64,000 bases of DNA from an uncultured virus (IMG/VR IMGVR_UViG_3300015262_000011). Its lineage: Duplodnaviria > Heunggongvirae > Uroviricota > Caudoviricetes. The notes under the pieces are model-generated. The model was not told where the DNA came from, searched no databases, and saw nothing but the letters and a program-made list of their open reading frames with translations. The DNA is taken from the IMG/VR virus record IMGVR_UViG_3300015262_000011; one strand, written 5' to 3'. Below are positions 23,859-29,899 of this stretch, piece after piece; within the stretch, counting starts at the first letter, position 1, and every line of letters begins with the position of its first letter. The translations under genes were made by a program, and so were the position numbers.

Positions 23859-24191
23859 TCAGATACGGAGGGCGGCGACGGTCACCGAAGTGACGCCGGA
23901 GTAGCCGATGTTGACCTGGTTGTTGGTGTCGCCATGAAGCGCCGGGTCGATCGGACCGATCATCTTTTCGCCGCTGGCCGCGACGGTGACCGTCCGGTCC
24001 GGGACGGTCAGGCCCTTGTAGTTGTTGGACTGCGTGGTGAGGGTGACCGTGACGGGAGAGCCGCCGCCGTTCTTCACGTGGATGAAGATGTTGCTGGCGC
24101 CGAGGCTGACCTTGTCGCCGCCGCCCGAGGCGGCGCCGTAAGTCGGCGTGAGACCCGCCGCCGTGATCGTCTGAAGGCTGAGCACTGCCAT
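23859..24191 (-). CDS. Small beta-rich virion / decoration-like protein
   Basis: HVKNGGGSPVTVTL; position in head-tail module. Confidence 0.7.
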   Translation of the reverse strand: MAVLSLQTITAAGLTPTYGAASGGGDKVSLGASNIFIHVKNGGGSPVTVTLTTQSNNYKGLTVPDRTVTVAASGEKMIGPIDPALHGDTNNQVNIGYSGVTSVTVAALRI

Positions 24192-26127: not shown

Positions 26128-27468
26128 TCAGGCGTGCTCGATGATCACGCCGCGCTTGTACAGCGCCGCGTCACCCGTGCCCGCATCCGAAGGAACACCG
26201 AAGTCGCCCACCCACGACCAGGTCGTGGAGATGACCTGCTGCAGGCGGTCCTGCGGCGGACGCACCAGCAGCGTCACATCCACGCCCGGGGCCGCGTTGA
26301 CGGTGCGGATCTCCGGCACGTCCTCGACGCCGGTCCCGGCGATCAGGTTGCCGGTGCCCTCGAACGGCGCGTTCATCAGCGCGTTCGCACCCAGCACGAT
26401 CGGCCGGTGCACCGTCAGCGTGCCCGCGGAGCCGCCCAGGATCGTCGGAGCCTCCGTGTTGCGGACCCAGTCCAGGCCGCCGAACCGGCCGATCGACAGG
26501 TCCCGGAAGACCGGAGAGTCCACACGGCCCTGCAGCGCCTGCTTGAAGTCGGCGTCGCTGAACAGCTCGGCCTCAGTGTCCGGGTCGATGTGCGCGACGT
26601 AGTAGCCGCCCGGCAGCGTCGGAACGTTCATCTTCCGCAGGCGGGCCACCGCGGACCTGAAGTTCGCGAACGTCACCGTGTTGCTCGACGACAGGTCGTA
26701 GGCGCTGTTGCCGGTCGCCCGGATCGACACCGGCGCATTCGACGCCACCACCGAGTCGCCGATCACGTCCGCACGCGCGGTGCCCAGCGTCAGCGTGCCC
26801 GGAGTACCCGGAGTGACACCCACGACCGTGTTCGCGACACCGGCGATCGTCACGTTCAGCGGGTTCGCACCCGACACCGCCGTCGGAACACCGTTGACCA
26901 GCACCGTCTCGAAGCCAGCCGTCGACTGCACGATGATGGACGTGTCCGAGGTGCCCGCCGTGGTGCACCAGGTCCGGCCGCCCGCATACGCCGTGTACAG
27001 CTTGTTGCGGGCCACCTGGTTGATGGTCTGCCCCGCGTTGATGCCGAGGGTTTCCGCGTCCGAGATGAACTTGTTCGCCAGCGCCATCGCGGAGCCGAGC
27101 ATGTTCGTGTCCATGCTGTTCGCGTACTGGTCCATCACCACGGACCACTGCTCGAGCGAGTACGTCGCCGCCGACGGGTCCGAACCCGTCACCGGAGTCG
27201 TCACCGGCGACAGCAGGCCCCGGCGGGTGAACGTTTTCTTGTCGCCCAGGCCGCCCATCCACGGCTCCGCGTCCGCGATCTGCGGAAACAGGAACTGCGG
27301 GACGAGGCCATCCCGGAACACCCGGTCCAGCATGCCGTTCTGCAGCATCGCCTGGATCGACGCAGGCAGCGACGACCGCACACCGGCGTGCCGGTCGAGA
27401 CGGAACCACGGCCGCGCCGTGCGCCGCAGGGACATCCGCGGGCGGACCGCGGTCATGGTCGAGACCAT
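26128..27468 (-). CDS. Major capsid protein (with central beta-rich insertion)
   Basis: Position after scaffold; LRKMNVP..GGYYVAHIDP, IGRFGGLDWV, DRLQQV..TWSW. Confidence 0.88.
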   Translation of the reverse strand: MVSTMTAVRPRMSLRRTARPWFRLDRHAGVRSSLPASIQAMLQNGMLDRVFRDGLVPQFLFPQIADAEPWMGGLGDKKTFTRRGLLSPVTTPVTGSDPSAATYSLEQWSVVMDQYANSMDTNMLGSAMALANKFISDAETLGINAGQTINQVARNKLYTAYAGGRTWCTTAGTSDTSIIVQSTAGFETVLVNGVPTAVSGANPLNVTIAGVANTVVGVTPGTPGTLTLGTARADVIGDSVVASNAPVSIRATGNSAYDLSSSNTVTFANFRSAVARLRKMNVPTLPGGYYVAHIDPDTEAELFSDADFKQALQGRVDSPVFRDLSIGRFGGLDWVRNTEAPTILGGSAGTLTVHRPIVLGANALMNAPFEGTGNLIAGTGVEDVPEIRTVNAAPGVDVTLLVRPPQDRLQQVISTTWSWVGDFGVPSDAGTGDAALYKRGVIIEHA

Positions 27469-27470
27469 TT

Positions 27471-27662
27471 CTACTCCTCAGTGGTGATTTCTACGGACAC
27501 CAGGTCCGGGTACTGCTGGGCGTACTGATCCAGCCCCAGCAATGCGGTTTGTGTGATCGCCGTGATCGCCGCACACACGCGGCTGTCCTCGACGTGGCCC
27601 TCGTGTCCGGACACCTCGATGAGGGTGTGTCCGTCGCCCAGCCGGGCACGGACTCGGATCAC
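27471..27662 (-). CDS. prp: Prp-family (DUF464) cysteine protease
   Basis: MI.V...IEVSGH....VCAAITAITQTALLGL: His-Cys dyad signature of Prp. Confidence 0.82.
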   Translation of the reverse strand: MIRVRARLGDGHTLIEVSGHEGHVEDSRVCAAITAITQTALLGLDQYAQQYPDLVSVEITTEE

Positions 27663-28456
27663 GGGGTGTAACGCTTCCTGTAGCCGATCTTCGCCAGCTC
27701 GGCCTGCACTTCCTCCGGAGACGCCGTCATGAAGTCCACCGGCGGCGGCGCCCCACGCGACCCCTGACCGGGATCCGGCCGCGGCTTCGGCTTCTGCTCA
27801 GCCGCCGGAACGGCTACGGGGGCCGGTTCGGGCTTCGCCCAGTGCGGCTTCCGCTCAAGCAGATCCGCCAGGGCCGCCTCGATGGCGTCGGTGTCGATCG
27901 TCCCGTCGCTGTCGACGTACTGCGACGGATCCCGCATCAGCACATCCGTCGCGTCACTGGCATCCGCGAACTGCGACATGGCGAGAACCCTGATCTCCGA
28001 CTTCACAGACTGCGCCACCGCCTTGGCGGCTTGCTGCTGCGCCCGCTCGGCCAGCGCCTGCGCCTTCTCCAGGTCGCTCTTCTTCGCGTCCTCGAACTCC
28101 TGCACCTTCCGGGCGAGATCAGCGGCCTTGCGCCGCTCCTCCGCCGCAGCCTTCTTCGCGGCGGCGGCCTCCTTCTTCGCCGCGGCGCGCTCCGCCTTCA
28201 TGCGGTCGAGGGCCTTCTTACCGGCGTCTCCGAGCTCCTCGGGATCCGGATCGTCGCCGTCACCCGGCTCGGGATCGTCGCCCTCCGGGCCGTCGCCTTC
28301 CGCGGCCTCCGCGAGAAGCCGCTGAGCCTCCGCGTCCTCGTCACCCTCAGGCTCCGTACCCGCGCCTTCCGGGTTCGGCTCGGGGTCGTCATGCCGGGCC
28401 ACGGCGAACCATGCAGCTCGGGCTGCAGGCAGCCAGGACAGTCGTGTTGCGTTCAT
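27659..28456 (-). CDS. Capsid scaffolding protein
   Basis: Acidic N-terminus, LGDAGKKAL..MK.ER coiled coil, KPHW, PDPGQG. Confidence 0.88.
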   Translation of the reverse strand: MNATRLSWLPAARAAWFAVARHDDPEPNPEGAGTEPEGDEDAEAQRLLAEAAEGDGPEGDDPEPGDGDDPDPEELGDAGKKALDRMKAERAAAKKEAAAAKKAAAEERRKAADLARKVQEFEDAKKSDLEKAQALAERAQQQAAKAVAQSVKSEIRVLAMSQFADASDATDVLMRDPSQYVDSDGTIDTDAIEAALADLLERKPHWAKPEPAPVAVPAAEQKPKPRPDPGQGSRGAPPPVDFMTASPEEVQAELAKIGYRKRYTP

Positions 28457-28576: not shown

Positions 28577-28843
28577 TCAGCTCTTGAGCGAGCCGTCAGC
28601 GTTCCAGCCGTCGGGAATGGCATCGAGTGCACCCAGAGCCTTGGCTCGCTTCAGGATGAAACGCCGCACCTTCGCGCGAGCTTCGTCCGTGGGCGGCTGC
28701 ACCCGGCCCACGGCTCGGATCGCGTTCGCCAGATCCGCTCGGCTCGCGATGTTGAAGCGCCCGGGACGGCTCTGCCCTGGCGCAGGCATCGCCTGCCCCC
28801 GTTGCACCATCTGACGCATCTGCTTGGCGTCCGGTTGGGCCAT
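28577..28843 (-). CDS. Small head-module protein (DUF6582-like)
   Basis: RFNI....DL.NAI.AVGR...V.RFI.KRA.ALG...IP..W. Confidence 0.65.
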   Translation of the reverse strand: MAQPDAKQMRQMVQRGQAMPAPGQSRPGRFNIASRADLANAIRAVGRVQPPTDEARAKVRRFILKRAKALGALDAIPDGWNADGSLKS

Positions 28844-28855
28844 CGAACCTCCTGA

Positions 28856-29899
28856 TCAGTGCAGGTATCCGAAGCGCCGCAAGAGCCTGATCAGCTCGTC
28901 GCGGTCCTCGGACAACTTGAAGATCTCCCCCGGCGTCAGCCGCGGCGTCCTCAGATGAAAGCGCGGCAGCCCCTGCTCTACGTCGGCCGCACTATGAGCG
29001 AACCGCTGCCCCGTCCGCTGCTCCGTCTCGCGGCGCATCTGCTGGAAGAACTCGCCGCGCCGCGTCGTGCCCTCAAGCGTCGCCACAACCTTCTGCCCAT
29101 AGGCGTCCAACGTGATCGTGGAACGGCCCGCGTTGACCACCTTGTAGATGTCGGCGCCGTTGCGGATCGCCGTCGCCCCGCCAACCCCAAACCGGCGATC
29201 CTGCTCGGCCCGGGACAGGTTGCTGAAGAAGCTCATCGGATTCAGGCGGCGGCCCGGCCGCGCGTCCGTCGCGGGTACGCCGTAGCACTGGCAGCGCTTG
29301 TGTCTCTGGAAGTCGGCGTTGTACCGGTACCAGCGGCCAGCCAGGATCACACACCTTGAGCAGGCGCCCGCCCGCACCATGCGGACGTAGCCAGTCACCC
29401 GATGGTTGGCGACCATCGCCACCCCGGCAGCGCCCCTGCCCGCATCCGCGACCTCTGAGGCGGCCATCCGCTGCAACTGGAACAGCCCGGACGTCATCGC
29501 CTCCTGCAGCGTCAGCCCGCCCTGAATCAAGGTCTTGGTGCGGATCACCGGCAGATACAGCAGGCTGTCCAGAGTCCGCCCGTCCGCCGCTGCCCCAGAA
29601 AACTGGCGCGGCTGCACGTGCGAGGCGCCCTCGCTGTAGTCGTTACCCAGGCCGTCCGCGCGAACCATGGCCTCGATGTACGGCTGCCCGCTGCTCGCCG
29701 CGACCAGTTGGCCGGCGGCGACCGCCCGGACCATCGCCGGACCGAGCCCGTTCAGCCAGGACCGGGACAGGTCGTTGCCCTGCAGCCGCTTCCACAGCCG
29801 CTCAACGGTCAGGGTGGTCCGCAAAACGGCCCGCTGCTGCGCTGCCCCGTAGGCGGACACGATCGCCTCGTGCGCCCGCGTGTCCACCACCACGGCCAT
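28856..29899 (-). CDS. Minor capsid / head morphogenesis protein (MuF-like)
   Basis: ACSRCVILAG...FQRHKRCQC; position after portal. Confidence 0.82.
   Translation of the reverse strand: MAVVVDTRAHEAIVSAYGAAQQRAVLRTTLTVERLWKRLQGNDLSRSWLNGLGPAMVRAVAAGQLVAASSGQPYIEAMVRADGLGNDYSEGASHVQPRQFSGAAADGRTLDSLLYLPVIRTKTLIQGGLTLQEAMTSGLFQLQRMAASEVADAGRGAAGVAMVANHRVTGYVRMVRAGACSRCVILAGRWYRYNADFQRHKRCQCYGVPATDARPGRRLNPMSFFSNLSRAEQDRRFGVGGATAIRNGADIYKVVNAGRSTITLDAYGQKVVATLEGTTRRGEFFQQMRRETEQRTGQRFAHSAADVEQGLPRFHLRTPRLTPGEIFKLSEDRDELIRLLRRFGYLH

Follow-up and report, generated by a model that had tools for sequence, protein, structure and literature searches.

The phage genome studied here probably encodes its own Prp-like leader-processing module: a half-length homologue of the cysteine protease Prp, with its His-Cys pair intact, would cut the leaders of both the scaffolding protein and the major capsid protein after a histidine, a reading built on sequence comparison. 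According to the first-pass annotation, the phage has a self-contained Prp system whose substrates are the scaffold and the capsid, and the co-occurrence of enzyme and recognition motif, together with the absence of any other Prp from the hosts tested, argues in favor of that proposal.

The half-length Prp homologue and its locus

The window (the whole stretch of DNA analysed, 64,000 nucleotides) makes up the first 64 kb of an IMG/VR record of 93,177 bp with 99% completeness and a GC content of 0.69. Its head module is of the siphophage type and lies on the minus strand, in the order terminase, SPP1-type portal, VG15-family protein, 88-aa ORF, scaffold, 63-aa ORF and capsid. The position of a 63-aa Prp-like gene between scaffold and capsid, already pointed out in the first-pass annotation, was confirmed by the ORF coordinates and by PHROG and PF04327 matches. 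The relevant features are as follows:

28856..29899, minus strand: VG15-family protein, 347 aa, PHROG 'head maturation protease' (E 1.6e-65)
27659..28456, minus strand: gene of the 265-aa scaffolding protein (matches PHROG head scaffolding, phrog_4708, with E 1.9e-21)
28391..28456, minus strand: scaffold leader, residues 1-22, predicted to be removed, with a putative cut at H22|D23 (motif in 108/116 relatives)
28391..28411, minus strand: scaffold recognition motif WFAVARH, residues 16-22, followed by DD (pattern and relatives)
27471..27662, minus strand: half-size Prp homologue, 63 aa (PF04327, invariant residues, AlphaFold model)
27603..27605, minus strand: His20 codon, equivalent to S. aureus Prp His22 (invariant in 121/121; 4peo alignment)
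27573..27575, minus strand: Cys30 codon, equivalent to S. aureus Prp Cys34, predicted nucleophile (invariant in 121/121; 4peo alignment)
26128..27468, minus strand: gene of the 446-aa major capsid protein (matches PHROG major head with E 6e-24)
27388..27468, minus strand: N-terminal 27 residues of the capsid, a basic leader whose removal is predicted, with a putative cut at H27|A28 (starts of leaderless homologues)
27388..27408, minus strand: capsid recognition motif WFRLDRH, residues 21-27, followed by AG (pattern and relatives)

The prp gene (GC3 0.81) starts with a GTG codon that overlaps the scaffold stop, and the ribosome-binding site of the capsid gene, GAGGAG, sits within the last prp codons. 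As named relatives of the short gene come from Streptomyces, Kitasatospora, Nonomuraea, Microbispora, Glycomyces and others, we infer an actinobacterial host, and the phage likely infects Streptomyces. Three further ORFs were noted in the record. The 88-aa ORF (window 28577-28843, minus strand), between the VG15-family gene and the scaffold, has no family match and just 6 homologues among the ORFs of the fetched loci; a small, beta-rich-looking ORF of 110 aa (window 23859-24191, minus strand), flanked by the head-tail genes and the presumed gene of the tail tube, is possibly a decoration protein; and a 434-aa ORF near the record end (G000:C1:90376-91680, plus strand), which has an integrase-like N-terminus and adjoins HTH-like ORFs, suggests that the phage is temperate.

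In a profile search, the 63-aa ORF matched Peptidase_Prp (PF04327), the family named in the first-pass annotation, with an E value of 7.6e-6, although its 26.5 bits lie half a bit below the cut-off of 27; this cut-off is exceeded by 36 of 50 relatives, and with respect to the NCBIfam equivalog cut-offs for Prp the short protein scores far below. Many of the relatives bear the NCBI name 'ribosomal-processing cysteine protease Prp', but the gene is not of the host ribosomal type (rplU-prp-rpmA with a long L27): it sits in a phage head module, and no L27 was found in the record. The family signature, a GH...C His-Cys dyad with Ser or Thr four residues after the Cys, as in Prp, PF04327 and MEROPS C108, is present. 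In an alignment of the query with the 120 matches listed of 200, G19, H20 and C30 are invariant (121/121) and position 34 is Ser or Thr; the S. aureus Prp equivalents are G21, H22, C34 and S38 according to the available text of PMC9405229. The same source gives the S. aureus D31A mutant as inactive, the Asp three residues before the Cys being needed and loop-stabilising. Here that position is occupied by Gly or Ser, and an Asp is found four residues before the Cys in 93 of the 121 aligned sequences, with the same spacing in T. maritima Prp.

The protein lacks about 40 residues of the Prp fold, S. aureus Prp having about 106 aa. Since 122 of 126 homologues measure 62-65 aa, the shortness is no sequencing error, and short forms constitute a family that extends more widely: of the best 150 among 703 representatives, 43 have 83 aa or less. 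Among 50,697 phage records, the short protein matched only Streptomyces phage Kromp (MH744420), whose gp5-gp6-gp7 constitute the same module, with a gp6 that is 76% identical and annotated 'protease' and with leaders reading WFQLTRH and WFRLDRH; no difference in kind separates it from the module of the window. Kromp has been grown to 2e10 PFU/mL on S. coelicolor and CsCl-purified (available text of bioRxiv 2025.09.03.674096). The literature searched, which took in few subscription papers and no supplements, yielded nothing that deals with short Prps, with this motif or with processing in Kromp.

A shared leader motif and its association with prp

A WFx(L/V)xRH leader is common to scaffold and capsid. 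When all six frames of the 93-kb record were searched with [WF]F.[LIVMF].RH, the pattern turned up at exactly two sites, whereas 200 shuffles gave an expectation of 0.06; as it was defined after both sites were known, the real test is conservation in relatives. Removal of duplicates from 306 loci left 126 unique loci with prp and capsid, and among these prp-bearing relatives 122 of 126 capsids carry the motif, the other four still having His before Asp. For scaffolds with their 5' end in view, the motif was found in 108 of 116, while five have ARF-D and one STH-D; the two remaining misses are frame or ORF-picking failures, the L368 scaffold in fact carrying the motif. The leader thus noticed on both proteins in a single genome was borne out across its relatives. 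Because the search pattern requires RH, invariance of Arg and His among the matches is by construction, and it is the misses that are informative.

The consensus is W-F-x-L-x-R-H followed by D, A, E or N, with P1' mostly Asp. P6 is Phe in 121/122 capsids and 107/108 scaffolds, and P4 is Leu in 118/122 and 102/108, respectively (Val at scaffold P4 in 1/108), while P3 is variable and P1 is His, or Phe in 5 scaffolds. Leaders have a median length of 17 residues and a net charge of +3 in capsids, and of 23 residues and +2 in scaffolds. Synonymous codons vary at the motif Leu and Arg (those for Phe and His are nearly fixed, as expected at high GC), and this variation ruled out a DNA-level explanation of the motif.

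Several leaders depart from the common layout. The capsid leaders of L139, L140 and L368 contain two tandem copies of the motif (WFRLDRH...WFDLGRH) at a distance of about 20-27 residues. In L119 and L120, whose Prps are divergent, the tag is changed and ends in SH or TH; a scan with the L120 capsid gave one further fragment locus beyond known contigs, so this variant motif rests on two loci. The portal of L120 (295-345; IMGVR_UViG_3300016484_001067) also starts with a variant tag, VPFRRAALSTH-D, matching its scaffold and capsid; none of the others among 100 unique portal N-termini does so.

Capsid homologues without a leader were found in Ralstonia and Komagataeibacter phages and in 80 loci fetched with the Ralstonia capsid. 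A Prp profile search of these 82 loci gave no match. When whole records were compared, PF04327 was present in 50 of 50 leader-bearing records (41 obtained via the capsid-baited scan, Kromp, and 8 via prp; picked after viewing the loci, not blind) and in 0 of 49 leaderless ones, or 0 of 11 among those at least 90% complete; the 49 represent 47 of the 80 loci, picked for longer contigs, plus two GenBank phages. As this contrast lies between two clades, it amounts to one evolutionary event. Starting instead from the motif DNA, we recovered at least 156 loci, with loci from one contig counted twice. Of the 80 with 1.8-kb flanks, 64 have prp, 2 are scaffolds that the contig end truncates ahead of the place of prp, and 14 are something other than leaders of head proteins; in the other 76, where flanks of 300 bases are too short to judge, prp was seen in 30. 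Compilation of these counts upholds the co-occurrence of motif and prp that the first-pass annotation had put forward for checking, and the motif, far from being equally common in phages without prp, is missing from the leaderless, prp-less clade. In a separate observation, the Ralstonia-type capsid of L326 has a different basic N-terminal extension, which ends in ARKAY before the usual start position, and no Prp match lies within its 5-kb locus.

We also tested 20 host genomes, consisting of 19 actinobacterial lysogens and one MAG labelled Solirubrobacterales. All 19 lysogens have a single PF04327 match, always at the prophage locus, and a short L27 starting M-AHKKG, which agrees, for these hosts, with the earlier statement that Actinobacteria are not known to use L27/Prp processing. 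The Solirubrobacterales-labelled MAG (L416/L437, G116) has a full-length Prp beside a long L27 (FNLQLF-AHKK); either its bin is mislabelled or it departs from the rule in Actinomycetota.

The same data bear on a different explanation, namely that the motif serves scaffold-capsid interaction or translation, the leader being either skipped through use of a downstream start or removed by a host protease. In 66 of 115 capsids an in-frame start codon does directly follow the motif, and S. pneumoniae can cut L27 without Prp (available text of PMC12324487). Nevertheless, 112 of 113 scaffolds have no start codon after the motif, conservation is at the protein level, the tested hosts have no other Prp, and prp is kept at every locus with its place in view, so that we consider this explanation highly improbable.

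Probable cut position and origin of the tag

S. aureus Prp (YsxB, PF04327, MEROPS C108, clan CR; PDB 4PEO and 7KLD) displays the same GH...C...S/T pattern and, besides cutting L27, acts on the same two types of phage substrate, the capsid and the scaffold of 80alpha. The enzyme described here differs in being phage-encoded and of 62-63 aa instead of about 106, and its tested hosts have a short L27 and no other Prp. The tag lies in the same register as the S. aureus substrates, and it shares the P4 Leu and the hydrophobic P6 of the L27/80alpha motif (D/N)LQ(F/L)F|A; in contrast, it has Arg and His at P2 and P1 instead of Phe-Phe, and a variable P3 instead of the conserved Gln. For S. aureus Prp, the available text of PMC9405229 gives LNLQFF|A as the L27 cut and a preference for P1 Phe, P3 Gln and small P1' residues.

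Intermediates were found in other phages. Firmicutes-type phages (IMG/VR L457-L536; Lactococcus TP712 and PLgT-1; Oenococcus phages) likewise have Prp beside scaffold and capsid, although upstream of the scaffold rather than between the two genes, and, unlike here, P3 Gln, P1 Phe and the Asp at three residues ahead of the Cys are retained. Short forms make up 13 of their 47 unique Prps, which corrects the view of short Prps as an actinophage-only trait; LQxF-type leaders lie near 8 of these 13 short and 23 of the 34 long ones, and the short Prps adjoin scaffolds and capsids with FRLQRF-N, FDLQRF-N or LNLQMF-N. In Nonomuraea and Microbispora prophages, FDLARF-D is found on the scaffold and RH-D on the capsid. 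The resulting register chain runs LNLQFF|A (L27), FRLQRF|N, FDLARF|D, FRLDRH|A/D, and therefore aligns the tag His with the P1 Phe. On this sequence evidence the tag derives from the L27/80alpha motif, its P1 His being a traceable shift from Phe, and the earlier description of the motif as new had to be given up. A candidate link between Glu21 and the P2 Arg was dropped, the Firmicutes-type short Prps pairing Ala at that position with P2 Arg. One short Prp (L475:3971-4159) lies among nucleotide-metabolism-like genes, outside a head module and with no tag nearby, and L468 and L470 likewise have no nearby tags.

Pneumococcal phage Cp-1 also encodes a Prp homologue, gp13 (clan CR; hhalign E 3e-4, probability 38%), which differs from the short Prp in being full-length (104 aa) and in that its gene is not beside the capsid. 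Its reported cut point likewise follows a His: the enzyme removes the first 48 residues of the head protein according to the available text of PMC12445089, and the sequence there reads His48-Ala49, although the leader is given as about 40 residues in PMC9261936 and in the available part of PMC9405229. The site, GARINH|A, is without the WFxL pattern, and no tag motif was seen in the putative Cp-1 scaffold, gp8. Phage-borne Prp was thus already known, from Cp-1 and from the Kromp gp6 annotation; the tiny enzyme and the altered tag would be variants of it.

A third line of evidence comes from the leaderless capsids, in which, by eye, 56 of 58 unique rows have their start codon six residues before a conserved Pro, a position equivalent to the residue after RH. 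As the register chain, the Cp-1 His48 and these starts agree, cleavage likely occurs after His, at H27|A28 in the capsid and H22|D23 in the scaffold. The earlier proposal of a cut after RH hence gains support from the motif register, Cp-1 and the leaderless starts, as well as from the co-occurrence of motif and prp. In L106, MPI stands directly after RH of the capsid and resembles the initiator of the leaderless Ralstonia-type capsids, as if a leader had been added ahead of an old start.

Two other roles for the proteins of this locus were weighed against these findings. The short Prp could be an assembly chaperone that binds the leader, with cutting not needed, absent or incidental. Its Prp fold is truncated, a chaperone role has been proposed for S. 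aureus Prp (available text of PMC9405229), and in 80alpha it is the scaffold leader, not its cleavage, that is needed: viability is lost neither with an uncleavable capsid nor with an uncleavable scaffold, but it is lost with a pre-cleaved scaffold (available text of PMC5744158). This role seems to us unlikely, given that His and Cys are invariant, are also kept in divergent short Prps, and that the conserved block stops exactly where the leaderless homologues start. The second role concerns the 347-aa VG15-family protein. The first-pass annotation had recognised no HK97-type protease, and none was indeed found among the 9 head-module ORFs scanned, but this ORF and its 'head maturation protease' label had been overlooked. 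If it were the maturation protease, the short gene would be an accessory; the PHROG match points that way, as does its Kromp counterpart, gp4, which is annotated likewise. However, its conserved residues, C180-x2-C183 and H200-x2-C203-x-C205 (61 of 102 sequences aligned), form a Cys/His cluster that we take to resemble the signature of MuF-type minor head proteins. Comparison of this protein and of the capsid with the PDB gave no informative match and, for the VG15 protein, no solved protease, and the tag motif descends from the Prp motif. The available text of PMC7302621 treats MuF-like proteins and maturation proteases as separate functions. We therefore give this assignment very little credence and retain the short Prp as the probable protease.

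Fold, proposed mechanism and meaning

The profile of the short protein matched the solved Prps 2g0i (E 1e-3) and 4peo (E 0.024) in two overlapping pieces, one aligning residues ~1-48 with the N-terminal part, the other aligning 36-61 with the last helix and strand. The same two-piece match was obtained in 92 of 99 full-length Prps, a set that had been found with the short profile and is thereby biased towards this result. The two helices of full-length Prps are themselves alike (hhalign probability 94%; score 32 versus a maximum of 12.9 in 60 column shuffles). The AlphaFold monomer (pLDDT 88.6) is made up of a pair of strands and a single long helix (beta-beta-alpha) plus a C-terminal segment. 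In a structural scan of 48,161 chains, the four solved Prps ranked 1 to 4 (rmsd 2.2-2.4 A over 51-58 residues) with Z of 4.2-5.1, values that, being below 8, are weak alone, rank 5 being an unrelated chain with Z 4.1. Superposition places model residues 1-62 on Prp residues about 53-113 only, i.e. on half of the fold. Foldseek of the monomer model against the PDB gave no match at E <= 0.001, and single-sequence phmmer against the PDB returned ankyrin-repeat noise, with 2g0i as the sole, weak Prp match. On the model, then, the short chain would combine the catalytic sequence of the first half of Prp with the shape of the second.

A single chain provides only about half of a Prp fold, and the working form is therefore likely a homo-oligomer. 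Self-association is also suggested by S. aureus Prp, which binds substrate L4 and L6 at its dimer interface (available text of PMC9405229). A predicted complex of four Prp copies with capsid residues 10-45 scored 0.02, with controls also unfolded, and counts neither way. As a tentative extension, one possibility among others, the short Prp might be a single-repeat active protease that forms a symmetric Prp-like oligomer with a catalytic pair per half, represents a state predating the internal duplication of Prp, and has had its specificity retuned to His, orthogonal to host Prp. The short form may be either ancestral or the product of a deletion between the two similar helices.

In the mechanism that we propose, scaffold, Prp and capsid would be made together, their stop and start codons overlapping or adjoining, and the short Prp would self-associate into an active cysteine protease, a homodimer rebuilding one Prp-like subunit and a tetramer a Prp-like dimer. 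The P6 Phe and P4 Leu of the leader would sit in a hydrophobic groove at the subunit interface, like L27 L6 and L4 in S. aureus Prp, and Cys30 would attack the His-X bond during head assembly, releasing 22 residues from the scaffold and 27 from the capsid. The module likely came from Firmicutes-type phages and would have had to bring its own enzyme into hosts without Prp. While leader processing is thus supported, the word 'maturation' in the first-pass annotation may overstate its role, cleavage being dispensable in 80alpha. That these phages retain enzyme and tags together nonetheless suggests selection for cleavage, even though 80alpha tolerates uncleavable proteins in the laboratory.

Retroviral proteases have about 99 residues per chain. 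If active, the 63-aa protein would count as a very small protease with sequence specificity and would offer a natural way of learning how half a Prp fold works, and a His-specific enzyme for tag removal could be a possible tool. For the family, Prp-type head processing would be extended to phages of Actinomycetota, whose tested hosts are without a Prp of their own.
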